DNA of 64,000 nt from Patescibacteria group bacterium (GTDB taxonomy: Bacteria > Patescibacteriota > Dojkabacteria > J137): contig BOLA01000001.1 in assembly GCA_016861265.1 (NCBI GenBank), forward strand, positions 1,023,745 to 1,087,744. The letters run 5' to 3'. The notes beneath the pieces were generated by a model. That model did no database searches. It was not told where the DNA came from and saw nothing but the letters and a program-made list of their open reading frames with translations. Of the stretch, positions 629 to 17,307 are shown one piece after another. Position numbers and translations under genes: made by a program. Every line of letters begins with the position of its first letter. Position 1 is the first letter of the stretch.

Positions 629-1531
629 TTATTTAGTTGAATTAATTGAATTCCAGCTACCGCCTTGAAATTCAGGAATAGTGGATTCGCTATTTTCAGT
701 TATGATTTTACTTAATATATCTTTAAAGTAGAAAAATATTTCTTTTTCAATATTTTCATCCTTTAATTGGTCTACTACTTGGTTAATTATACTATTCTGA
801 TCAATTTTATTCTTTCTTCTACTGTTATAAACCTCCTCGAACTCAGGAAATTTTGCCATGATTTGTAAATATCCTTGATCGAATCTAGTTTCTTGTCGTA
901 AAAAGTCACCCCAACTTAGAGGTGGTTTATAAGCTACAATCGATGTTAAGAGAACTTTTACAGCCTCCCATCCAAACTTTTTAGCAACATTTAGTGTTAA
1001 CCAATTATCTTCAGAATGTATATCTTCGGGATAAATAATATTCAGATCACTTTTAAATGCTAAACATCTGCCTATAGGTATAACTCTTCCTCTTGCTAAC
1101 CTATATAATTCTTGACTTCTGAGGGTTTTATATAAAAGTGTTGTTTTATCTATGGACTCATATGTTGGGACATCTAATGCACCAATCAGTTTTATTAAAG
1201 GATTTTCTAATTCGTTAATTAATAATGCTATAGTATTTTCCTTAATTCTACAATCAGAATCAATTTGCATAATTATCTCTCCCTGGCTTTCTTTGATTCC
1301 TTTATTTAAAGCTTTTGTCTTGCCAGATGTTTTCAGTTTTATAAGTTTAAAGTTGTTTAGCTTCTCATGGATAAGATATTCTTCAACTATCTTTACTGTG
1401 TTATCAATTGATCCATTCTCTAAAATTAAAACCTCATATTCAATATCTAAAATAGAGTTTTGTATATCTTTCAGTAAATTTATGATATTTTTATGTTCAT
1501 TGTGAGCTGGGATTAGAATACTAAGTTTCAT
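629..1531 (-). CDS. family-2 glycosyltransferase (soluble, GT-A fold)
   Basis: N-terminus LSILIPAHNEHKNI...LILENGSIDNT...IDSDC carries the GT2 DxD-type motifs. No TM segments. Its start overlaps the GT9 stop (1528-1531). Confidence 0.7.
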   Translation of the reverse strand: MKLSILIPAHNEHKNIINLLKDIQNSILDIEYEVLILENGSIDNTVKIVEEYLIHEKLNNFKLIKLKTSGKTKALNKGIKESQGEIIMQIDSDCRIKENTIALLINELENPLIKLIGALDVPTYESIDKTTLLYKTLRSQELYRLARGRVIPIGRCLAFKSDLNIIYPEDIHSEDNWLTLNVAKKFGWEAVKVLLTSIVAYKPPLSWGDFLRQETRFDQGYLQIMAKFPEFEEVYNSRRKNKIDQNSIINQVVDQLKDENIEKEIFFYFKDILSKIITENSESTIPEFQGGSWNSINSTK

Positions 1532-2724
1532 TTTATAAATTTTGTAATATGTTGAATAATGATTTTTTCATTTATATTAAACACCCATTCATTTTTTCCT
1601 TTAATCTTTTCATCTATCTCATCTCTTCTAAGGGACATATTATTTTTTGTTAAATACTTAGCCAATTTAGTCGCAATTGGAATGACATTTGATTTCCCAG
1701 TGCTCCATTTCCCAAAATCATGTCTACTATACAATATGAAGACTTTAGGTAATTGATTAGTTGTTGAATTTTTACTCATAGCTGCAAGATGGGAAAACCC
1801 TGTGTCATTACCTATAACAAATTTGCATCTTGAGAAAATGTAGGACAAGATTTCAAAATCTTCAGTATCAATTAGAATAATGTCTTTGTGTTTAGTTAAT
1901 AATTTTTTTACTTTAAACCACTCTTCAGGAGATTCTTCTTTCCAATTTGCTATTAAAAAGCACCTTGATCGACTAAGCTTTCGTTTTAATGTTTTATATA
2001 AATTCAAGAACTTAAGAGTTCCGTACCTTTTTTCAATCTCGCCTGCTTGACTGATAATAGCAATAGATTCAATATTGTCCGAAAGTTTAACCTTATATTT
2101 ATTTTCAACTTTTTCTTCAATACTTTTATCATATTGTAAATTAAATATTGGAAGTGAATCATTTGGATTTGATTTTAATCTAACTCCTAATTCTCGCTCA
2201 AAAGTGAGGAAATATCTTGCTGGTCTAGAAATATATTCAATACTATGTTTTTTATTTATAAACTTGGGATATATATAATTCTCACTATTGAAAATTACTG
2301 GATAATTTTCTAAAGTAAATGGGTCATCATCAGTTACTAAAGCAACTTTTGTTCCTGAATTATGTTTATCTTTAAAATAGTCAATTGCGTTATTCACTAT
2401 TTCTGCACTTTCCAATATATCTATATGTCTTAATAAATTAGAAAATGTACTGTCAAGTATATATTTAGGCAAATTGTTTGGTCTTGTAATCAATAAAAAT
2501 TCGTGAGTAGCCTGAATTACAGATAAGAATAGAAAGGAATCACCTAATGGTTTCCAGTACATACTAAATACAACTTCTTCACATTCAAGTAATCCTTTTT
2601 TTAATGTCTCATTAATTTCATATCCAGTAATGGCCTCTCCATACTTCATTTGAGGTCTATCATAATATAGCTCTACACGAGCAGTTTCAGTTGTAATATA
2701 TTTCTTGTAGGTTAAATTTTTCAT
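1528..2724 (-). CDS. family-9 glycosyltransferase (ADP-heptose:LPS heptosyltransferase-like)
   Basis: C-terminal motif KFVIGNDTGFSHLAAMSK matches the GT9 (WaaC/WaaF/WaaQ) signature GND(S/T)GxxHLAAA. Overlaps its neighbours on both sides by 4 nt. Confidence 0.65.
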   Translation of the reverse strand: MKNLTYKKYITTETARVELYYDRPQMKYGEAITGYEINETLKKGLLECEEVVFSMYWKPLGDSFLFLSVIQATHEFLLITRPNNLPKYILDSTFSNLLRHIDILESAEIVNNAIDYFKDKHNSGTKVALVTDDDPFTLENYPVIFNSENYIYPKFINKKHSIEYISRPARYFLTFERELGVRLKSNPNDSLPIFNLQYDKSIEEKVENKYKVKLSDNIESIAIISQAGEIEKRYGTLKFLNLYKTLKRKLSRSRCFLIANWKEESPEEWFKVKKLLTKHKDIILIDTEDFEILSYIFSRCKFVIGNDTGFSHLAAMSKNSTTNQLPKVFILYSRHDFGKWSTGKSNVIPIATKLAKYLTKNNMSLRRDEIDEKIKGKNEWVFNINEKIIIQHITKFIK

Positions 2725-7500: not shown

Positions 7501-7708
7501 TCATAATTATTTAAAATTAGTGTAAGCTTCACTTCCGACTATGTTAAATTTATCAAAGAGATACAATACTTTGATAAATTTATATAAGAACATCTGTAAG
7601 TCATTATTCACTTAGATTTCACCGATATTTTATTCTAGGGATTATAACACTAAAAGTATTGACAGCCTTTGTATTGCGATACAAATCTTATATATTTGCT
7701 AAAGAAGA

Positions 7709-8129
7709 GTTTCAACTCCATCCTCATCTACAAACTTCCATTTCTTATTACTGCTTGAAGTCTTCTTGTAATTCTTAAAGAATTTCTGATTATCTTTAAC
7801 CATGTAAACTGTAAAGTAAGTTTTGCCTTCTGAATCTTTTAATTCTCGTCCTATAAGTTCACCATTTCGTTTCATTTTGCTAACGGTAGCAGAATGTAAT
7901 CCAAATTCACTTTTAAATTGCCAACTAGCAATCCATAGATCATGATTCTTAATAATTTCAGCAGGAATTATTCCTTCTTTTACATGTCTTCTACAATCAA
8001 CACATTGAATACCATCTAAGTTCCACCAAGATTCACTACCTTTAAGACCTCTAGAACAAAGATTGCATGAATAACCAGATTCTTCAATTTGGAACTCCTG
8101 AGGAAAGATTGAAAATATTATCTGGTATT
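7709..8129 (-). pseudogene. Zn-ribbon-containing ORF (~138 codons stop-to-stop) lacking an ATG/GTG/TTG start
   Basis: Minus-strand frame reads ...SGYSCNLCSRGLKGSESWWNLDGIQCVDCRRHVKEG... (CxxC...CxxC) continuing to ...KKWKFVDEDGVETLL*. The first in-frame Met gives only about 58 aa, which is why the track omits it. Co-directional with the HEPN gene and immediately downstream of it. Confidence 0.25.
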
Positions 8130-8169
8130 CAAACTAGATTTGAATTAACTCAGAGACAACTAATGAAGG

Positions 8170-8934
8170 TCACATCCTAGGGGTATTTTCTTGATGAGTC
8201 TCGATCAAGAAAATTGACATGGAGCCACTCAAATACACAGCTAATTCGGCATGACGAGGTTTAGGTTTTATCTTTTTAATCCCTTTTCCATGAGCATCAC
8301 CGAACTTATTTCTCATTGTACCTAAACCATTCACAACCGCTGAACATCCCCCTAATATTTGCTTAAACAAATCCTCACTGTGTTGATCTGGACTAAGTTT
8401 TAGTTCGTGAGCTACATTTTTATACAAAACTGATAAGTCAGTATTATCTGTATACGGCATACTTCTTTCATCCAAGATGAACTTGCAAGTACTTTCAAGA
8501 ATTGTCCTTGCGGTTGTAATTGCACCCTCAGGATCACTAACCTTTCTTTCTAAAGCTTTCTGTATTTCTTTATGTATTGAATTTGCTCCATATTTCTTTA
8601 ATCTTTCTTCAAAAGTATCGTCTGTAAAGATGCCATTAATTCCAGGTACTTCAAGTACATTTAAGAGATCTTCAAATGATTCCCAAATATACTCCCTTCT
8701 TTCAGCATAAGTATCAAATTTTTTTTTGATAAATTGCCAGAACTGACCTAAATCTCTTTTAGTTCTAACAAAATCAGGTAGTTTTTCGGAGACTGAAGTA
8801 TTATCTAAAAAGTACTTTCTCAGATATGTGTACTCTTGTGCGTCAGATTCTATACCAGTTGCTCTAGAAACCAGTATATCCTGTAAGTATTCTGCTTTTT
8901 CGTAATCATTTTGTAAGTGACTGAGTGAAGGCAT
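8170..8934 (-). CDS. AbiJ-like abortive-infection protein with C-terminal HEPN (Abi_C) domain
   Basis: C-terminal LGTMRNKFGDAHGKG matches the HEPN Rx4-6H motif (R-NKFGDA-H). Size (254 aa) and architecture resemble AbiJ N-terminal domain plus Abi_C. Confidence 0.5.
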   Translation of the reverse strand: MPSLSHLQNDYEKAEYLQDILVSRATGIESDAQEYTYLRKYFLDNTSVSEKLPDFVRTKRDLGQFWQFIKKKFDTYAERREYIWESFEDLLNVLEVPGINGIFTDDTFEERLKKYGANSIHKEIQKALERKVSDPEGAITTARTILESTCKFILDERSMPYTDNTDLSVLYKNVAHELKLSPDQHSEDLFKQILGGCSAVVNGLGTMRNKFGDAHGKGIKKIKPKPRHAELAVYLSGSMSIFLIETHQENTPRM

Positions 8935-9183
8935 GATTAAAACTTTAATATCTCTGTAATTATAGCAATAGAAACGGAATTAGAACGAAAGTTACTAACT
9001 GAGAATCTACAACACCCACAATAAAAAAGCTTAGAACCAAGGATATGAATTTAAAAATTGAATATGGCTATTTTAGAGCAAAAACAACAATTTTAAGAGA
9101 TTTACGAATTACTGCAAGCCAATGTACAACACCATTCGAGGCTTCAAAGGTAGGTAGACGGGTCTTGCGAAACCATTTGAAAA

Positions 9184-9274
9184 TGGCGGAGAGGACAGGA
9201 TTCGAACCTGCGACCCGATTGCTCGAGTACAGTCTTTCCAGGACTGCGCACTAGACCAACTATGCGACCTCTCC
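9184..9274 (-). tRNA. tRNA-Ser (anticodon GGA), long variable arm, encoded CCA
   Basis: Reverse complement GGAGAGG...CAGTC-CTGGAAA-GACTG...long variable arm...CAGGTTCGAATCCTG...CCTCTCC-G-CCA. Anticodon stem 5 bp with a 7-nt loop, U33, anticodon GGA, discriminator G73. Confidence 0.85.
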
Positions 9275-9285
9275 AATAGGATTAA

Positions 9286-9357
9286 AGGTGTTGGCGGGAA
9301 TCGAACCCGCGAATAGCAGTTTTGCAGACTGCCGCCTTACCACTTGGCCACAACACC
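9286..9357 (-). tRNA. tRNA-Cys (anticodon GCA), no encoded CCA
   Basis: Reverse complement GGTGTTG-TGGCCAAGTGGTAAGGCG-GCAGT-CTGCAAA-ACTGC-TATTC-GCGGGTTCGATTCCCGC-CAACACC-T. Acceptor and T stems are perfect; anticodon GCA; discriminator U73, as expected for Cys. Confidence 0.85.
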
Positions 9358-9504
9358 ATAAATACGGTAGATGCAAAAGCAATTATAGCAGAATACCCAG
9401 GCTTTTAATGTTAATTGCTATTAACTTTTTATCTCCTTTACCAAGTAGATAGTTTTTTAATTACTCCCTCATTAGTGTTAGAATTTTTTGTATAACAAAT
9501 TTAT

Positions 9505-10020
9505 ATGGCTACACCAAGAATTAAAGTAATAGTAAACGACAAAATGCAGAATAACTATAGCTACTATAGAACAGAACCTATTGGAGAAAATTTTGATGAA
9601 AGGTTCAAGCCGGGTCTAACTCCAAAGCAGATGTTAGAGTTAGGAGTTTTTGGTGGAAAGTACATGACTGATTGTAAGAATGAATTCCCTGAAGATTGGT
9701 ATAAAAATGCAAAGCTATGTTCCGAAAGACACGATCCCGAACTGAATTTTTTTAAGGTAAATGCTAGCCAACCCTTAAAAGTCTGGATTCAAAAAGGCTG
9801 GATCTACCCTGAAGATCCTCGTGGCTGGTTCCAGTGGTACTGCAGATACTATATGGGAAGAAGAATTCCTATAGAAGACGATAGACAAATAAGGCGTTGG
9901 CTTGCAATTAAAAGACATATTGCACAGGTTCAAAAAAATTGTGTATCAGGAGACTTAACCTGTAGGCATAAGCAAAGACAGGCAATCCTGCATTGGGCTT
10001 ACGATAGTCGAAAAATTTAA
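9505..10020 (+). CDS. conserved hypothetical protein (Trp/Tyr/Arg-rich motif GWFQWYCRYYMGRR)
   Basis: 171-aa ORF with ATG start, coding-like composition and no recognisable family motif. Confidence 0.5.
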   Translation: MATPRIKVIVNDKMQNNYSYYRTEPIGENFDERFKPGLTPKQMLELGVFGGKYMTDCKNEFPEDWYKNAKLCSERHDPELNFFKVNASQPLKVWIQKGWIYPEDPRGWFQWYCRYYMGRRIPIEDDRQIRRWLAIKRHIAQVQKNCVSGDLTCRHKQRQAILHWAYDSRKI

Positions 10021-10067
10021 CTTAATTCTTTGTTATATAATTACCTATCAATTTAGTAAATACTTAT

Positions 10068-11072
10068 ATGGATAATATAAACGCAATTCTGGCTAATGCA
10101 AAATCAATATTAGTTACTTCTCACTTACAGCCCGACCCAGATGCGATATGTTCATCCTTAGGAATGTATGATTATATCCTTAAATCTTTTCCAAATGCTA
10201 AGACCGACATTTACTTAAATGGCGAAAAATTACAGGCATACTCTACCTTAAAAAATTACGATGATATTAAGTGGATTAAGGATGTTTCTGAAGTAGTGAA
10301 TAACTACGACACATTGGTTTTTACAGATGGAAGCCATTTATCGCGTTTTACAAACTCCGAGGAATCCATAGATTTATCAAGGTTTAAAACAATATGTATT
10401 GATCATCATAAGAACGAACAATCAAATTGGGACTCCGTAATACTGGAATCTCAGGAACCATCTGCAGCTCAAATTATATATAAATACTTTTTTAGGGGGA
10501 CTAACTTAATAGAATCCAATATTGCCGAAGTTCTTTTAACAGGAATTCTAAGCGATACGGGAATGCTTAGATTTGTAAGACCATCTGCACTTTCAACATT
10601 CGATTACGTCAAAGAACTGATCGAAATAAGCGACCTTGATTTAAAAATTATTGAAGATAAGTACTTTAATCTAACCGAATCCGATATGGATATTATTAGT
10701 GTACTAACAACCAATATTACAAAGGTTGATGATTATAAACATCCGTTTATTTATTCCTACTTACCTATGGAGTATTTAAATAAGTATTCGTTAAATCTAA
10801 CAAAGCAAGGTAAGTCAAAATTCCAAATGTTCTTTGCAACTTCAATAGGTAAGTATAAGTGGAGTTTTATTGCTACCCCAAACAGTGATTCGGTAATGAA
10901 TATATCATTAAGATCCTCACCAGGAGTGGAAAATGTTAGGTTAATTGGTCAACAATTTGGTGGCGGTGGTCACGACTTAGCCAGCGGGGGTGAATTCCCA
11001 ATCGGACCTGGGCAAGACAGTGCGCAGGTATGTTTAAAGATTGTGGAAAAAATTAAGGGGTTAAATTTATAA
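10068..11072 (+). CDS. DHH/DHHA1-family phosphoesterase (NrnA-like nanoRNase / pAp phosphatase)
   Basis: DHH motif ICIDHHKN and DHHA1 motif FGGGGHDLASGG. Confidence 0.75.
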   Translation: MDNINAILANAKSILVTSHLQPDPDAICSSLGMYDYILKSFPNAKTDIYLNGEKLQAYSTLKNYDDIKWIKDVSEVVNNYDTLVFTDGSHLSRFTNSEESIDLSRFKTICIDHHKNEQSNWDSVILESQEPSAAQIIYKYFFRGTNLIESNIAEVLLTGILSDTGMLRFVRPSALSTFDYVKELIEISDLDLKIIEDKYFNLTESDMDIISVLTTNITKVDDYKHPFIYSYLPMEYLNKYSLNLTKQGKSKFQMFFATSIGKYKWSFIATPNSDSVMNISLRSSPGVENVRLIGQQFGGGGHDLASGGEFPIGPGQDSAQVCLKIVEKIKGLNL

Positions 11073-11075
11073 ATC

Positions 11076-11828
11076 ATGACTGAAAAAGTAATTCCCAAGC
11101 ATGTAGTTTTAATACCCGATGGAAATAGGCGTTGGGCGAGATCTAAAGGTTGGTTGGCTTATGTTGGCCACAGAAAGGCTGGCAGTTTAGAACGTATTGT
11201 CGAATTATTTTATGCATCTAAGCAGTTAGGCATACAATACTTATCGGTATGGGGTTTTTCTACAGAAAACTGGGAAAGGGATTCAAAGGAAGTCGACGAA
11301 ATTTTTAAGGTACTCTTTAAAGCCTTGCATGGTTTAAAAGACTTAATGCACAAAGAGCATATAAGATTTAGACATTTAGGTAGAAAAGACCGACTGCCTA
11401 AGGATTTACTAGCTGCCATGAATAATCTTGAGGAAGATACTAAGGACTATACCGCCTTGAACTTTAATCTTCTGCTAGATTACGGAGGACGTACAAGTCT
11501 TATCGAAGCTGTTAATAGAATATTATCTAAGGGCTACACTCAAATTACCGAAAAAGAGCTAAAAGAGAACCTCGAAACAAATACTATCCCAGATCCAGAT
11601 CTAATTATTAGAACTTCTGGAGAACAACGAACAAGCGGTGTTTATGCCTTTGAAGGAACCTATGCAGAATTATATTTTACCGAAGTCTTATTCCCTGACT
11701 TTACACCTGTAGAATTTACAAAAGCTATAGATGAATTCTCTAAAAGAGTCAGAAGATTTGGTGGTACTAATAAAAAGGATCTAAAAAACATTAAAGATCA
11801 ATTAATTGATCCAGATAAATCGAGCTGA
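11076..11828 (+). CDS. uppS: undecaprenyl-diphosphate synthase (cis-prenyltransferase)
   Basis: HVVLIPDGNRRWA is the canonical UppS N-terminal motif; ...IRTSGEQRTSG... Confidence 0.85.
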   Translation: MTEKVIPKHVVLIPDGNRRWARSKGWLAYVGHRKAGSLERIVELFYASKQLGIQYLSVWGFSTENWERDSKEVDEIFKVLFKALHGLKDLMHKEHIRFRHLGRKDRLPKDLLAAMNNLEEDTKDYTALNFNLLLDYGGRTSLIEAVNRILSKGYTQITEKELKENLETNTIPDPDLIIRTSGEQRTSGVYAFEGTYAELYFTEVLFPDFTPVEFTKAIDEFSKRVRRFGGTNKKDLKNIKDQLIDPDKSS

Positions 11829-12039
11829 GATCGCCTAGAGAAGTGTCTGCAAAATTTATTTTCTTCTAAAAATTACAAATACTTGTGAAAATACTATAGG
11901 TTTTTACAATTTTGTAAGAAAATTTGTGAAAACATATTGCATTAATATTTTTTATGCTCTACAATAACCAATATTATTTTCACAGAAATATATCTGTTTA
12001 ATGACAAGAAAGATTCAAACAAAATTGAATTGCGTTATT

Positions 12040-12232
12040 TATCCGCTTATTGCGGATGGTTCTTGTCGGATAGCTTAACTTTCGTTATTTCCGACAAGCC
12101 ACTATAAGAAGTGCAAGTGTCGGAAGAATTGATTACCTAATTAAAGACGTTGATATTCCTTATGGTAGCTTGTCGGGTGTAATGCCAGTTCGGCTTCACT
12201 CAGCTCGTTGACAATTCTTAAGGAGGTGTCTT
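12040..12232 (+). promoter_or_regulatory. structured 5' leader of the ABC exporter with alternative hairpins and a 25-codon uORF (12001-12078)
   Basis: tccgc-ttatt-gcgga hairpin. cttgtcgga(12062-70)/tccgacaag(12092-12100) form a 9-bp stem, and agcttgtcggg (~12169) could alternatively pair with the second arm. The uORF ATG 12001...TAA 12076 (MTRKIQTKLNCVIYPLIADGSCRIA) ends inside the first stem arm. A perfect SD AAGGAGG lies 9 nt before the GTG start. Confidence 0.3.
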
Positions 12233-14119
12233 GTGTCTAAGCATTACCGCCGTTCCCTGTACAAGGGTCAGTTCAAGCAGAACGCTCTTAGGAGTTTTCT
12301 GGCAATCCTTTGGGAGTACAGGAGTTTTATGTACTTTCCAGCATTGATGGTGTTGCTGCTCGAAGCGGCTCAAATGGGTGCAAGGGTTTTTATTTCTGAA
12401 ATCCTAGCACGAATTGAGCTGGCCGATTGGAGTGCACTAGGCGTTTTGTTGCTGAGCATGTTTTTGTATAACATGCTTACTCTTGCAATCGATGCAAAGA
12501 TGGTTCGCGTTGTAATTGAGCGAGTCGGCTACGACTTTGCATTTGCATACGAAAACAAGGTTCTAAGGCACGTAGCAAGACTGGGACACACATTCAATTC
12601 ATCTTTTCCTATCTCTGTAACCCTGGATAGGATAGCTAAAATCGAACGTGTGTCGGATCTAGTTGAACAGGGTTTCTGGACTTTGTTCAACAATGTTTTT
12701 CAGGGCATAATCAGTTTGATTGTGCTAAGCATTTATCTGCCTGCTGCCGTACCTGTGGTGCTTGTGGTGTTCTTTCTCTTCATAAGGTTTAACAACATTA
12801 TGATTGAGAAACAGGCTATTGTACGCAAACGCCGCAAGGATCGAGGTGAAGATAAGGCTGAAATTCGAATGCGTCTAGTTGCAGCCAATACGACACTGCT
12901 GTCCAATGGCGCATTGGAACGCACTGAGCAGACAGTCTTTAAAAGCTCCTCTCACCTAAAGCGTGTTGGAATTCTGGAGCTGATGCATGTACTTCGTGGA
13001 AATGGAATTATCCGCGATGTGCTGCTCTACTTTGGCCGTTTTGCGGTACTTGCCTTTGCGGTTAGTATGGCTCAGGCTAAGGTAATCGATATTCCCCGCC
13101 TTGTGCTGGTCTACACCGTTTCCGAAACCATGTTCATTGGAATGTGGGGTGTGGTTCGCTTTGTGTACTCGTTCATGTACGAAAGTCCATCAATTCTCAA
13201 GATTGATGAACTCATGCAGATTACACCGACAGTAGTGGAACCTGTAAATCCTGTATCAATTCCTGCTGGTCCGTTAGGGTTTGCATTCAACGATGTAAAC
13301 TTCACGTATCGTGGAATTGAGATTCAAGGTAAAAAGCAGGTTGATCCATACTTTGGCGAAAATCTAGCTCGAGCAAACCATTTAAGGCAACAACTCGGTG
13401 TTCACCCCTATCAGGTAAAAAAGGCTGAAGAACAGCCTTTGCATTTGTGCGGAGTGAACTTAAACATTATGCCAGGGCAGAAGGTTGCCTTGGTAGGACA
13501 TAGTGGCGCAGGTAAGAGCACACTGTCACTGCTGCTTTCTAAGCTTCAGGTGCCTGACTGCGGTCAACTGCTTGTTAACGGAGTGCCGATCGAGCAACTC
13601 GATGGCTACGAACTGCGAAGCAGAATTGCCGTCGTGCCACAAGGTTCGAACGTAGACATATTCAATGACACCCTGTTGCATAACATTACACTTGGCGACG
13701 AGCGTTTTGAAGTGGCAGATGTTATTGAAGCCCTAAAGGTAGCGGAGCTTTGGAACACTGTTCTGGAGTGGCCGCTAATGCTCTACGAAACAATCGGTGA
13801 ACGCGGCAGAACTTTATCGGGAGGTCAGCAGCAGCGGGTTGCAATCGCAAGAGCAGCAATACGTAAGCCTGATCTCATTATTCTAGATGAAGCTACAAGC
13901 GCACTCGATACCGAAACCGAACGTCTGGTTCAGGCTTCGCTTAATCGATTGCTGCAAGGTAGAACAGCAGTGATTATCGCTCATAGACTTTCTACAATCA
14001 AAGACGCGGACATGATTGTAGTAATGCGCGATGGTTCAATCGGCGAAATGGGAACTTGGGACGAGCTTGTACATACGGAAGGAGATTTTGCAAAGCTCGT
14101 TAAGGCACAAACTCTTTAA
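12233..14119 (+). CDS. ABC exporter, fused permease + ATPase (GTG start); GC content far above surroundings
   Basis: Six-TM N-terminal half. NBD with Walker A GHSGAGKST, signature LSGGQQQRVAIARA and Walker B IILDEATSALD. A counted ~100-nt sample is about 52% GC, against about 30% in the flanks. Confidence 0.85.
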   Translation: MSKHYRRSLYKGQFKQNALRSFLAILWEYRSFMYFPALMVLLLEAAQMGARVFISEILARIELADWSALGVLLLSMFLYNMLTLAIDAKMVRVVIERVGYDFAFAYENKVLRHVARLGHTFNSSFPISVTLDRIAKIERVSDLVEQGFWTLFNNVFQGIISLIVLSIYLPAAVPVVLVVFFLFIRFNNIMIEKQAIVRKRRKDRGEDKAEIRMRLVAANTTLLSNGALERTEQTVFKSSSHLKRVGILELMHVLRGNGIIRDVLLYFGRFAVLAFAVSMAQAKVIDIPRLVLVYTVSETMFIGMWGVVRFVYSFMYESPSILKIDELMQITPTVVEPVNPVSIPAGPLGFAFNDVNFTYRGIEIQGKKQVDPYFGENLARANHLRQQLGVHPYQVKKAEEQPLHLCGVNLNIMPGQKVALVGHSGAGKSTLSLLLSKLQVPDCGQLLVNGVPIEQLDGYELRSRIAVVPQGSNVDIFNDTLLHNITLGDERFEVADVIEALKVAELWNTVLEWPLMLYETIGERGRTLSGGQQQRVAIARAAIRKPDLIILDEATSALDTETERLVQASLNRLLQGRTAVIIAHRLSTIKDADMIVVMRDGSIGEMGTWDELVHTEGDFAKLVKAQTL

Positions 14120-14135
14120 GAGTTGCAATAAGCAA

Positions 14136-14182
14136 TAAAAAAGGGGCGAATCTTAGATTAAAAACCTTTGATTCGTCCCCGT
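14136..14182 (-). terminator. hairpin with U-tract on the minus strand (terminator of the 14265-14558 gene; also sits just after the ABC stop)
   Basis: aaaaaa-ggggcgaatc...gattcgtcccc. The minus strand reads stem-loop then TTTTTT. Confidence 0.45.
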
Positions 14183-14264
14183 AACCCACAATAATTATAC
14201 CATAATAGGCGGTAATTCTACGTCTACTTGGGAATATATAAAAAGTTGCTACTTAAAATGGATG

Positions 14265-14558
14265 TTACTCAATTCCTATTTCATCAATCTCTGGGAATAC
14301 TTTTCTTACTTCATCCCAGAATTTTTCAGCGAGTTTAGAAGTATAGTTACCATAGCCCGTGCTTTCACTTCTGCCACAAAGTACACTTTCGTAGTGTCTA
14401 ATAATTTCAATTATCTTTTCACCTTCTTTATTGAATTCTGCCCTATTTGCCTTTGAATCTGCTGCAAATTTTGCATGAGTAATCATAAAATGTTCTAGTT
14501 CGGCTTTATGGTCTGTCCACATATCTTCGAATACTTTTTTAAATTGAGGTTTAGCCAT
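14265..14558 (-). CDS. small hypothetical protein (97 aa)
   Basis: ATG-start ORF, convergent with the ABC gene and followed by the hairpin/U-tract above. Confidence 0.4.
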   Translation of the reverse strand: MAKPQFKKVFEDMWTDHKAELEHFMITHAKFAADSKANRAEFNKEGEKIIEIIRHYESVLCGRSESTGYGNYTSKLAEKFWDEVRKVFPEIDEIGIE

Positions 14559-14662
14559 ACAAAATAACTAATTGAATTGATTGTTTAAAAAGACATGAAT
14601 TATTTTATCAATAAAATGTAAATTTGAATGCTAAAATTTAAAAGTAAATTTAAATAATAAAT

Positions 14663-15355
14663 ATGGACTTAAAAATCGGTGATCTTTTTTACATAAAGGC
14701 AGATGGCAAATATTACGTATATAAACTACTAAGAATAGATTCTGAAACTGGAATTCATCATGTAATTGTATATCAGCCATACGAATATTCCCCAGACGAA
14801 ATTGATTTTAAAACTCTAGAAGTTTTAACAAAACATATTCCAATAGACACGCCAAAGGAATATAAAATTATTGGACATTCAGATGTTACTGAACAAGAAT
14901 TACAAGGTTTTTACGATTATCTAAAATTAACGGATTTTGCCAGATTCTTAGAAGAGACTGGTACTACAATTGAAGAAGTTATAAATACAGCAAACGGTTA
15001 CTTCATGGAAGCCGATAATGCTTATAAATCAGAAGAGTTTAGAGAGGCAATTCAAAAATATACTCAGGCAATAGAAGTTTACCCATTATTTTTTGAAGCA
15101 ATAGATAGACGAGCGTTTACAAAAATGGCTCTAGGTGAATTTTTAGATGCAATAAAAGACTTTGAATTTTCATTAATGGTTAATCCGGATTCTGTAATCG
15201 CAGAGTTTGCAATTGGAGAGTGTTATTTTAAATTAGGTGACTTTGAGAAAGCCGTGGAGCAATTTGAACATACAGCAAAACTTTATCCAGATGATGATTT
15301 AACAATGGAGTGGCTTGAATTAAGCAAACGTGAACTTGCACAATCGCAAGACTAA
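14663..15355 (+). CDS. TPR-repeat protein
   Basis: C-terminal half has TPR-like helices (AYKSEEFREAIQKYTQAIEVYP...AIKDFEFSLMVNPDS...GECYFKLGDFEKAVEQFEHTAKLYPDD). Confidence 0.55.
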   Translation: MDLKIGDLFYIKADGKYYVYKLLRIDSETGIHHVIVYQPYEYSPDEIDFKTLEVLTKHIPIDTPKEYKIIGHSDVTEQELQGFYDYLKLTDFARFLEETGTTIEEVINTANGYFMEADNAYKSEEFREAIQKYTQAIEVYPLFFEAIDRRAFTKMALGEFLDAIKDFEFSLMVNPDSVIAEFAIGECYFKLGDFEKAVEQFEHTAKLYPDDDLTMEWLELSKRELAQSQD

Positions 15356-15359
15356 AAAT

Positions 15360-16514
15360 ATGGACCTATCAGCAGATCAGCAAAATGCAATTACCACATT
15401 GCTTATGTGGTACAAAAATCCAAATAAATCTCCTTTTATTACACTAGGTGGTTATGCTGGTACGGGTAAGACCACTGTTATTTCGCTGTTAAGGAATCAA
15501 TTAAATGAAATTAATAAGACAATTTCCGTTTCCTTTTGCAGCTATACAGGTAAGGCTACTAGGGTGTTGGCGAATAGACTAAAAGATAACTCCTCTATTT
15601 ATCCTGCGGACACCGTAACAACAATACATTCTTTAATCTACACTGCACTTTTAGACGATTCTACTCAAGAAATAATAGGTTGGGAAAGAAAAAAGACACT
15701 GAACACGAATCTAATAATTGTAGACGAGGCTTCGATGGTAGATGAACAAATATGGCGAGATTTATTATCTTATAGAACTCCAATTATTGCTGTAGGTGAC
15801 CATGGACAGTTGCCTCCAATTAATTCGAGTTTTAACTTAATGGAAAATCCTAATCTTAAACTGGAACTAATCCATAGACAGGCAGAAAATAATCCAATTA
15901 TAGAGTTGTCCATAATGGCAAGAACTACGGGAGAAATACCAACAGGAAAATATGGACAAAATATTAAAAAATTTCTAAGGAGTGATTTTGATGCCTCTGA
16001 ATCAATTACTGAATTACTACAAAACTACAGAGAAGACACAATAATTCTATGTGGATTTAACACCACAAGGGTTAAGCTTAATAAATATGTGCGATCATCT
16101 TTGGGATTTGAAAGTCCCTTACCGGAAGCAAGAGATAGAGTTATTTGTTTAAAAAATAATAGAAAGAAAAATATATTTAATGGAATGCTTGGGAAGGTCT
16201 TATATGCAAATGATATTTTTGAATTTGCGTTAGAAATAGGTATAAAGATGGACTACGAGGATGATACATACGAAGGTAAAGTACTAAAGGAGCAATTCGG
16301 CTCAAAGGAAACTCTTACTAAAATGGCTAATAAAGAGTTAGATCTGTTCGATTTTGGATATGCACTAACAGTTCATAAATCACAGGGATCACAATCTAAA
16401 AGAGTAATTTTATTCGAAGAACGTGCGCAAGCAATGGACGATGCTATGTGGAAGAAGTGGCTTTACACTGCAGTAACCAGGGCTGAAGAAGAGCTTTTTA
16501 TTATTGGAAAATAA
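15360..16514 (+). CDS. RecD/Pif1/Dda-like SF1B DNA helicase (AAA_30 + UvrD_C_2)
   Basis: Walker A GGYAGTGKTT, Walker B IIVDEASMV, and C-terminal TVHKSQGSQSKRVILF. The track starts at GTG 15330 inside the TPR gene; the ATG at 15360, directly after the TPR stop, is the more likely start. Confidence 0.7.
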   Translation: MDLSADQQNAITTLLMWYKNPNKSPFITLGGYAGTGKTTVISLLRNQLNEINKTISVSFCSYTGKATRVLANRLKDNSSIYPADTVTTIHSLIYTALLDDSTQEIIGWERKKTLNTNLIIVDEASMVDEQIWRDLLSYRTPIIAVGDHGQLPPINSSFNLMENPNLKLELIHRQAENNPIIELSIMARTTGEIPTGKYGQNIKKFLRSDFDASESITELLQNYREDTIILCGFNTTRVKLNKYVRSSLGFESPLPEARDRVICLKNNRKKNIFNGMLGKVLYANDIFEFALEIGIKMDYEDDTYEGKVLKEQFGSKETLTKMANKELDLFDFGYALTVHKSQGSQSKRVILFEERAQAMDDAMWKKWLYTAVTRAEEELFIIGK

Positions 16515-17307
16515 AATCAAGAATTGAATTTCTTTTATTTACTCCCGCTTTAATAACATCTATAAATTCAATGGTTTTTTCGTAACCCTTTTTATAGAGA
16601 CCTTCTTTGTCTGCATTAAAATCTAGCATGTTGGTATTATCATCAAACCCAATAATTTTAAAATCTACGGGATTCATTTTTTGTTCGTTAATAGAGACTG
16701 TTTGCCATGCTACACCCAGTGCATCTACAAAGTCCTTCATAATTCCGGGCATTGCAGATACATCAATCCATTTTTCCACACTTATTCCTATTACATATTT
16801 TGCGCCGGCCTTTCTAAGATGATTTCCACCGTATGCTGTGCTAAATCCCCCATCTACCAATTTGTGCCCATCTCTATAAATAGGTTTTATTACAGGTGGA
16901 ACAGCACAACTGCCTATTATCGCACTAATTAAATCCCCACTTTTAATAACAACTTGCTCTTTGCTTTCAATGTCAGAGCAAAAGATTACCATTTTTTTGT
17001 TTAGTGAATCAAAGGTAGTTGCTTTAATGTATTGTTTTAATGCATGTTCTAGTAGATCGTGGTTAATTATCTCTCCGGCAATTACCGATGTGGGTCGTAT
17101 AAGTGTAAAAAAATTGGTATTCATTGCAATTTCGAGAATTTGCTTTCCTGAGTAGCCAGAAGCGTATAAAGCACCTACAATAGCACCTCCACTTAGACCT
17201 CCAACTACGTCTACTTCTATTCCATTGTCTTCTAGAGCCTGAAGAACACCGGCATAGATTAGAGCCTTTACTCCACCACCACTTAAAGAGATTCCAACTT
17301 TTTTCAT
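16501..17307 (-). CDS. patatin-like phospholipase
   Basis: Oxyanion/GxSxG region SLSGGGVKALIYAGVLQAL...GLSGGAIVGALYASG and catalytic DGG (LVDGGFST). Its 3' end overlaps the helicase 3' end by 14 nt (convergent). Confidence 0.8.
   Translation of the reverse strand: MKKVGISLSGGGVKALIYAGVLQALEDNGIEVDVVGGLSGGAIVGALYASGYSGKQILEIAMNTNFFTLIRPTSVIAGEIINHDLLEHALKQYIKATTFDSLNKKMVIFCSDIESKEQVVIKSGDLISAIIGSCAVPPVIKPIYRDGHKLVDGGFSTAYGGNHLRKAGAKYVIGISVEKWIDVSAMPGIMKDFVDALGVAWQTVSINEQKMNPVDFKIIGFDDNTNMLDFNADKEGLYKKGYEKTIEFIDVIKAGVNKRNSILDFIFQ

Follow-up and report, generated by a model that had tools for sequence, protein, structure and literature searches.

AbiJ-type proteins have been described as single-polypeptide systems in which a variable N-terminal sensor domain is joined to a HEPN domain, and they are often tied to restriction-modification (R-M) operons (PMC3710099); the mechanism of the lactococcal protein AbiJ is still unknown (PMC13064643). 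A second kind of described system comprises the elements and prophages that carry a large serine recombinase of the CcrB/XisF-like type (PHROG 95), in which the recombinase gene adjoins the attachment site. In a third kind, a fixed slot lies between conserved genes of the element, and its defence or accessory contents vary from one relative to another. The use of a tRNA 3' end as the integration target, with the tRNA end carried by the element, is more typical of tyrosine integrases.

We analysed a stretch of 64,000 nucleotides from a Dojkabacteria genome (contig BOLA01000001.1), referred to here as the window, whose numbering is used throughout. As in the AbiJ family (Abi_C, PF14355; PMC3710099), the protein encoded at the locus of interest is a single polypeptide with a C-terminal HEPN domain that bears an invariant R-x6-H motif and with a separate N-terminal domain, and its homologues are found inside R-M operons and in prophages. 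Unlike lactococcal AbiJ, its N-terminal part falls outside the AbiJ profile, and over its full length the protein corresponds instead to PHROG 23253. The recombinases encoded by the relatives of the locus share the domains of the CcrB/XisF-like group, and their genes also adjoin the attachment site; here, however, the apparent target is the 3' end of tRNA-Ser, which is carried by the element, and the window keeps only 33 codons of the recombinase gene. The locus also shares a fixed slot of variable content with the known slot-bearing elements, from which it differs in that the slot separates the 3' end of the recombinase gene from the attachment arm, in that the genomes are of the CPR/Saccharibacteria type, in that the recombinase is a large serine recombinase, and in that the window holds a relic.

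From this analysis we conclude that the locus combines a defence gene of a known kind, the cargo of a decayed element, with a gene remnant made by a deletion. According to the reading that we favour, with a probability of roughly 0.85, positions 7640-9212 of the window are a relic of about 1.6 kb derived from a prophage-like element integrated at tRNA-Ser, which retains its HEPN cargo and in which a deletion fused the tails of the recombinase and zinc-ribbon genes (Table 1). This reading corrects the original prediction, since the apparent HEPN toxin with a start-less partner becomes a single-gene AbiJ-type cargo beside a deletion scar. The comparison also outlines tRNA-Ser-associated serine-recombinase elements in Saccharibacteria-type genomes, with an exchangeable slot and an uncharacterised multi-zinc-ribbon protein, and it could aid annotators of defence islands and prophages in these small and poorly annotated genomes.

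Table 1. Features of the locus, listed from low to high coordinates of the window.
Feature	Position	Strand	Remarks
Tract 3' of the remnant, shared with L029	7640-7698	-	Probable distal end of the relic
Short AT-rich inverted repeat	7668-7685		Within the tract 7640-7698
3' remnant of the 416/541-aa multi-zinc-ribbon gene	7699-8083	-	128 codons and stop; no start codon
Excisionase/MerR-like winged helix of the remnant	about 7795-7941	-	From fold matches
4-Cys ribbon of the remnant	7993-8067	-	CxxC..CxxC
Deletion junction	8076-8083		8-nt overlap of two homologies; imperfect microhomology GAAGAAT(C/G)TG in a four-way alignment
3' stub of the large serine recombinase gene	8079-8180	+	Last 33 codons and stop; overlaps the HEPN gene's 3' end, which is on the (-) strand
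Variable cargo slot of the element	about 8157-8978		Holds the HEPN gene in the window
HEPN gene	8170-8934	-	254 aa, ATG start, intact; Abi_C/AbiJ-type, in the variable cargo slot
HEPN catalytic motif R208-N-K-F-G-D-A-H215 (R-x6-H)	8290-8313	-	From the alignment of 24 homologues
Conserved attachment-proximal arm	8979-9189		Common to elements with different cargo
tRNA-Ser(GGA)	9184-9274	-	ARAGORN, Rfam; integration target or attachment side
Last 29 nt of tRNA-Ser	9184-9212	-	Within the segment common to L020 and L021
tRNA-Cys(GCA)	9286-9357	-	ARAGORN; Rfam tRNA, 71 bits; host gene flanking the element site

The HEPN protein and its homologues

The gene at 8170-8934 had been predicted to encode a HEPN/Abi_C protein with the motif RNKFGDAH, and this assignment was confirmed. 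The Pfam family Abi_C (PF14355) matched residues 170-244 with E = 7.2e-21 and 74.5 bits (cut-off 24), and the alignment of 24 homologues from several phyla revealed that R208, N209, G212, D213, A214, H215 and G216 are invariant. The description of the protein as AbiJ-like held for its HEPN half but not for its N-terminal half. The PADLOC AbiJ model recognised the protein with E = 3e-22, exclusively through the C-terminal half, in which residues 119-249 aligned with profile positions 152-279 of 281; the N-terminal 118-165 residues were left unmatched by this lactococcal profile. Similarly, the HMM search that recovered PF14355 gave no credible Pfam family for the N-terminal half at E ≤ 1, including the families of AbiJ N-terminal domains, and the sole other match of the protein at this threshold was a marginal one to Cation_ATPase_N. 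The family that covers the protein over its full length is PHROG 23253, an uncharacterised phage family (E = 2e-81). The AF2 model of the protein had a pLDDT of 77.9 overall and of 54-57 around the motif, and the best Foldseek matches of the HEPN domain, both of them HEPN proteins, were weak (1wol, probability 0.92 and E = 0.95; 2hsb, probability 0.69). Given the moderate confidence of the model and the weakness of these fold matches, the HEPN assignment rests on sequence.

Homologues of the protein are numerous (3592 at E ≤ 1e-5), have a length of about 250 aa and are conserved along their whole length; the best 120 show 53-65% identity. Their genes are found in different surroundings. In loci L009 and L010, the gene is located between those of HsdR and a methylase, L009 being a type I R-M operon, and in L011 it is surrounded by unrelated genes. 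A homologue is also present in 43 contigs of IMG/VR, in about 18 of which the gene lies no more than 1 kb from a contig end. The recombinase was absent near these 43 viral-contig homologues, which indicates that only in the closest relatives is the HEPN gene linked to the recombinase. When close relatives were sought in JGI metagenomes, a single locus was obtained, which at 42% identity was uninformative. The HEPN protein is thus a single-gene unit that occurs in many contexts. Its putative RNase activity and defence phenotype are those predicted by its family membership.

The parent element and its integration site

The closest relatives of the HEPN protein, P0275 and P0274 (at least 90% protein identity), are encoded on L020 and L021. 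At the DNA level, window positions 8076-9212 aligned with positions 5-1140 of L020 at 92.6% identity and with positions 569-1704 of L021 at 88.2%. This segment, a unit distinct from the zinc-ribbon remnant, runs from the 3'-terminal 29 nt of tRNA-Ser through the arm and the HEPN gene to the final 33 recombinase codons, which are encoded on the (+) strand. In L020, the HEPN gene and the gene of a 440-aa recombinase converge and overlap; the recombinase is a CcrB/XisF-like protein with Resolvase, Recombinase and Zn_ribbon_recom domains that matches the PHROG 95 integrase. The (+) strand of the window at 8079-8180 reads ILQFGTPEERLKILSGIQTRFELTQRQLMKVTS followed by a stop codon, which is the C-terminus of this protein, and a tblastn search of the window with the recombinase of L029 matched residues 416-444 of the query. 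The original prediction had reported that no integrase was found; this is correct for an intact gene, given that the window contains only the last 33 of 440 codons, but a stub of a large serine recombinase gene is present on the opposite strand.

The recombinase gene is intact in L020, L022-L027 and L029; in L028 it is almost whole, and in L021 the contig end truncates it. The scan of reference genomes for this recombinase gave eight loci, from CPR MAGs (Dojkabacteria, Saccharibacteria and the Microgenomates group) and two labelled Gammaproteobacteria. Among the relatives, L029, from a Saccharibacteria MAG, is collinear with the window: its positions 552-994 correspond to 7640-8083, 9219-9260 to 8076-8117, and 10191-10401 to 8979-9189. 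Between the first two of these blocks, L029 carries the rest of a 541-aa zinc-ribbon gene, HamA (Hachiman-like), a helicase-methylase, a TerS-like protein, TerL and the complete recombinase; about 8.2 kb of this layout are missing from the window. Between the recombinase and the arm, the relatives have different genes, namely those of a 277-aa protein in L029, of a 248-aa DUF4160 protein in L024, and of a 203-aa protein and a 282-aa APH-like protein in L023. This variation indicates that the slot filled by the HEPN gene is one whose cargo can be exchanged.

Besides the match in L029, the arm was identified in L024 (10134-10313, corresponding to 9010-9189) and, in its tRNA-proximal portion, in L023 (11239-11299, corresponding to 9152-9212). 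A tRNA-Ser gene is located at the arm or within 700 nt of it in the window, L021, L023 and L024. The left end of the element abuts or includes the 3' end of this tRNA gene in the first three and is separated from it by 627 nt in L024. In L021, the shared segment abuts another isoacceptor, tRNA-Ser(GCT). Furthermore, seven contigs of related strains break at the tRNAs (9183-9282), as expected of a strain-variable site.

Several statements of the original prediction about this site were in agreement with our results. ARAGORN and Rfam both detected the tRNA-Ser/tRNA-Cys pair, and Rfam found no other non-coding RNA at the locus. The suggestion that defence cargo had been integrated beside a tRNA 3' end is supported by the segment shared with the relatives, which begins within the last 29 nt of tRNA-Ser. 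Likewise, no duplicated tRNA 3' end is present in the window beyond chance matches of 11-17 nt. Since the window contains neither a second attachment site nor a repeat of the tRNA end, the far boundary of the element, at about 7640, is placed by the loss of homology to L029 alone. The tract adjacent to this boundary might have a role as a terminator; the terminator scan, which included 7640-7698, detected no intrinsic terminator, and promoter-like sites occurred at the shuffled expectation.

The zinc-ribbon frame and the deletion junction

The start-less CxxC...CxxC frame of about 138 codons that had been noticed downstream of the HEPN gene does exist, and measured 144 codons on the (-) strand, from 8133 to the TAG at 7699-7701. 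The first ATG, GTG or TTG codon in this frame is a Met codon at 7875, far past the Cys cluster. The frame is real coding sequence and not the non-conserved noise that the original prediction had contemplated, because it belongs to a protein family with 259 representatives (E ≤ 1e-3). This number was obtained by an exhaustive profile search, whereas a word-indexed search with the frame retrieved three relatives only; the HMM matched the frame of the window with E = 9e-49. Many of the representatives are stand-alone proteins of 130-200 aa, and many others, of about 415 and 540 aa, carry the module at their C-terminus. Residues C23, C26, C44 and C47 are invariant in the alignment of 46 sequences of the family, and the AF2 model of the frame reached a pLDDT of 91.5.

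Intact versions of the gene were found in relatives, as the 541-aa gene of L029 and as a 416-aa protein, P0124, in L012. L012, from a near-identical strain, aligns from 8867 to 16948 with positions 8083-1 of the window; mismatches number 0-3 in each 200 nt, except in two divergent tracts (8083-7484 and 2283-1284). P0124 is the best match of the zinc-ribbon frame and is encoded directly upstream of a PLP-decarboxylase operon, the same operon that follows the frame in the window. Beyond 8083, which precedes the first Cys by 5-6 codons, the window is no longer homologous to L012; the frame is therefore the last 128 codons of a longer gene and no partner gene. Of the three options offered for it originally, a pseudogene is the correct one, given the intact gene in L012 and the homology broken at the junction. 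Upstream of its zinc-ribbon gene, L012 lacks the genes of the element, and the history of the locus must therefore include more than one event.

At the junction, the homology to L020 and L021 ends at 8076 and that to L012 and L029 at 8083. Read from these alignments, the 8-nt microhomology that joins two gene tails appears as the signature of an illegitimate deletion. Such a deletion would explain both the start-less zinc-ribbon frame behind the HEPN gene and the lack of a visible integrase. The exact junction gave 0 matches in JGI metagenomes and is known from one assembly.

The comparison of the remnant with the intact allele of L012 revealed 21 synonymous and 10 non-synonymous differences (pN/pS 0.11) and neither frameshifts nor stops, so the remnant bears no positive sign of decay. 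The tract of the remnant is 8% diverged from L012 and lies beside flanking DNA that is more than 99.9% identical, which implies that the alleles split long before any recent truncation; the low pN/pS is therefore silent on present function. When the changes were polarised with L001, relaxed selection was not detected in the remnant (5 synonymous and 3 non-synonymous changes in the window vs 4 and 2 in L012), with numbers too small to be decisive.

The zinc-ribbon frame is in phase with the HEPN gene, from which it is separated by a TGA, 11 codons and a TAG. This shared phase is a coincidence, given that all three stop codons terminate genes of the window (TAA 38, TGA 8 and TAG 6 of 52 ORFs) and that the intervening DNA is of different origin. 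Read-through, a fusion of the two frames and an alternative code were considered and discarded: TGA and TAG end genes, the ORFs read with table 11 account for 90% of the window, and what lies between the two frames is the recombinase stub.

We propose that a prophage-like element was integrated at the 3' end of tRNA-Ser by a large serine recombinase. Intact relatives of this element run in the order arm, variable slot, recombinase, large and small terminases, further defence or methylase genes and, at the end, the 541-aa zinc-ribbon gene; in the strain of the window, the cargo slot is occupied by the intact gene of the AbiJ-type HEPN protein, a single-gene system. The tail of the recombinase gene (33 codons) would then have been fused to that of the zinc-ribbon gene (128 codons) by an illegitimate deletion corresponding to some 8.2 kb in L029, leaving an element that presumably can no longer move. 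By itself, the HEPN protein may serve as an RNase that phage infection triggers, the C-terminal HEPN nuclease being restrained beforehand by the conserved N-terminal domain, in line with what has been proposed for proteins of the AbiJ type. In all likelihood the remnant is not translated; it may ride on the 3' end of the HEPN transcript.

Alternative readings and the zinc-ribbon family

A different reading of the remnant is that it is a working gene, which would encode a 128-aa DNA-binding protein with a zinc ribbon and a winged helix, perhaps a regulator, and would be translated from a non-canonical start (ATT at 8086-8088) or through coupling to the HEPN gene. The frame has remained open over 144 codons with no frameshift at 8% divergence, its pN/pS is low, its model is confident, and the module stands alone as a short protein elsewhere. 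In addition, an in-frame AGGAG-N6-ATT is present right at the junction, and in a second chimera, P0001 of L001, which occurs on 6 contigs, the final 81 residues follow in frame a DUF1016_N domain that has an ATG start. However, a low pN/pS is expected if the divergence predates the deletion and arose between intact alleles, and the remnant lacks a canonical start as well as the RKKRLxxEPxGFxL motif, which is strongly conserved ahead of the ribbon across the family. The rare start that the original prediction had suggested is also unlikely, because the genome does not use Shine-Dalgarno sequences (an SD-like motif precedes 3 of the 52 ORFs, below the 8% background) and because synonymous variation in the recombinase frame accounts for AGGAG and ATT, which were inherited and not selected after the deletion. 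For these reasons, we regard a working gene as quite improbable.

Still less credit can be given to the model of the original prediction, a toxin/partner or abortive-infection system made up of the HEPN gene and, as its decaying partner, the zinc-ribbon ORF. The two are co-directional, adjacent and in the same frame, and in L003 a stand-alone member of the zinc-ribbon family is located 9 bp behind a gene predicted to encode a DUF4365 nuclease-like protein. In the window, by contrast, the recombinase stub and the deletion junction lie between the HEPN gene and the frame, which would have been brought together by the illegitimate deletion of about 8 kb. A search of 322 kb, covering 47 loci at which a HEPN homologue is encoded, found the zinc-ribbon module at none of them, and the closest HEPN relatives, in L020 and L021, have the recombinase downstream instead. 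Moreover, the intact zinc-ribbon orthologues of L012 and L029 have no Abi_C neighbour, and an Abi_C gene was absent near the intact zinc-ribbon gene at every such locus examined. It is comparably hard to credit that the junction is an assembly artefact joining two strain variants. The locus is strain-variable, as the seven contigs that break at the tRNAs indicate, and the junction was not found elsewhere; nevertheless, the join has an overlap of only 8 imperfect nt, far under any assembler k-mer, and to either side of it the order and orientation are those of L029, which is what a simple internal deletion would produce. The relic of a tRNA-Ser-integrated element with an internal deletion is the reading that we retain.

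The family to which the remnant belongs was also characterised. In its module, a small winged helix comes after a 4-Cys ribbon, and in the full-length proteins 290-410 further residues with more zinc ribbons precede the module; no family of Pfam, NCBIfam or PADLOC covers it. About 55 structured residues at the end of the remnant can be superposed on domains of the MerR/excisionase type (BldC, phage P2 4lhf, PrtN and phage HTH_17-type) at 2.2-3.4 Å, and Foldseek gave the winged helix a probability of up to 0.99, with E-values of only 0.02-0.2. Unlike the domains of the BldC, P2 and PrtN type, the winged helix is preceded here by a 4-Cys ribbon.

The contig with the stand-alone member, L003, is phage-like and encodes a LexA-like repressor, and its TerS, TerL and methylase share 59-72% identity with those of L029. 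The presence of a family member on a contig related in this way to L029 suggests that the zinc-ribbon gene family is a component of this element lineage. A broader proposal is that the zinc-ribbon/winged-helix family constitutes a conserved and so far undescribed terminal gene of the prophage-like tRNA-Ser elements of CPR/Saccharibacteria that have a large serine recombinase, maybe as a recombination directionality factor or lysogeny regulator, and that the remnant and the L001 chimera are functional, salvaged modules. We consider this proposal unlikely; if it were true, the C-terminal module of the family could act alone as a DNA-binding module. A role of the family in the regulation or excision of the element is speculative. 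The 541-aa form of the gene is present in L029 and as P0276, which is a second, full-length zinc-ribbon copy in the source genome of the window.

A second chimera and the setting of the zinc-ribbon family

P0001 is a second chimera involving the tail of the zinc-ribbon family. The N-terminal part of this protein, which begins with an ATG start, corresponds to a DUF1016_N domain (Pfam E = 1.5e-6); behind it, in frame, comes the C-terminal stretch of 81 residues from the zinc-ribbon family. The zinc-ribbon tail of P0001 has 245 nt in common with the window and with L012, the near-identical strain carrying the intact allele, at 91-92% identity; beyond these 245 nt, no other common sequence was found between the 10.6-kb L001 locus and either of them. 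Within the first 26 common codons, P0001 and the window differ at five positions, and all of these differences are synonymous. P0001 was present on six contigs.

In the phage-like contig L003, a stand-alone member of the family begins 9 bp past the end of a DUF4365 gene, whose product we take to be nuclease-like, and a LexA-like repressor and an Apyc1-like gene are found nearby. This neighbourhood may hint at the normal working context of the family. P0276, a full-length protein of 541 aa, represents a paralogue of the parent gene of the remnant, and the source genome probably carries this gene outside the window as an intact second copy. The P0276 gene possibly sits inside a complete element.

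Coordinates of the features described in this section
Feature	Location	Remarks
P0001, 218 aa	L001 5001-5657; L002 1069-1725	DUF1016_N and zinc-ribbon family tail
Stand-alone zinc-ribbon family member (193 aa) and preceding DUF4365 gene	L003 5318-6582	phage-like contig
Second divergent tract relative to L012	window 1284-2283	within 398-aa and 300-aa genes
ABC-ATPase ORF, 628 aa	window 12233-14119	
tRNA-Ser(GCT), hairpin, partial second tRNA copy, element arm	L023 11215-11500	
Spacer between element arm and tRNA-Ser(GGA)	L024 10314-10940	complete Saccharibacteria chromosome OZ246402.1

Probable insertion sites at tRNA-Ser genes in relatives

L023 is a relative's locus with the recombinase and other cargo. 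Its tRNA-Ser(GCT) gene is complete but does not encode the CCA end; next come a GC-rich hairpin and then the same tRNA again in incomplete form, extending from the D-arm to the 3' end, including CCA and fused to the element arm. The presence of both the complete copy and the arm-fused partial copy is suggestive of integrations here in tandem or one after another. At L024, the arm and tRNA-Ser(GGA) are separated by 627 nt of unrelated DNA that includes an 83-aa ORF; this spacer may be the remnant of another insertion.

Other features of the window

The divergent tract accumulates approximately 121 mismatches in 1 kb (~12%) relative to the otherwise almost identical L012, and the L012 counterparts of the two affected genes match glycosyltransferase families. 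The tract has the look of a stretch imported by recombination into genes for surface polysaccharides.

Shine-Dalgarno motifs are essentially absent from translation starts in the source genome, as they precede only 3 of the 52 ORFs in the window, compared with 8% of random 17-mers, and this bears on the assessment of any start codon proposed within the window. The ABC-ATPase ORF is the sole case of a strong AAGGAGG motif among the long ORFs of the window; its GC content is 43-49%, against ~32% for the genome, and it may have been acquired horizontally.
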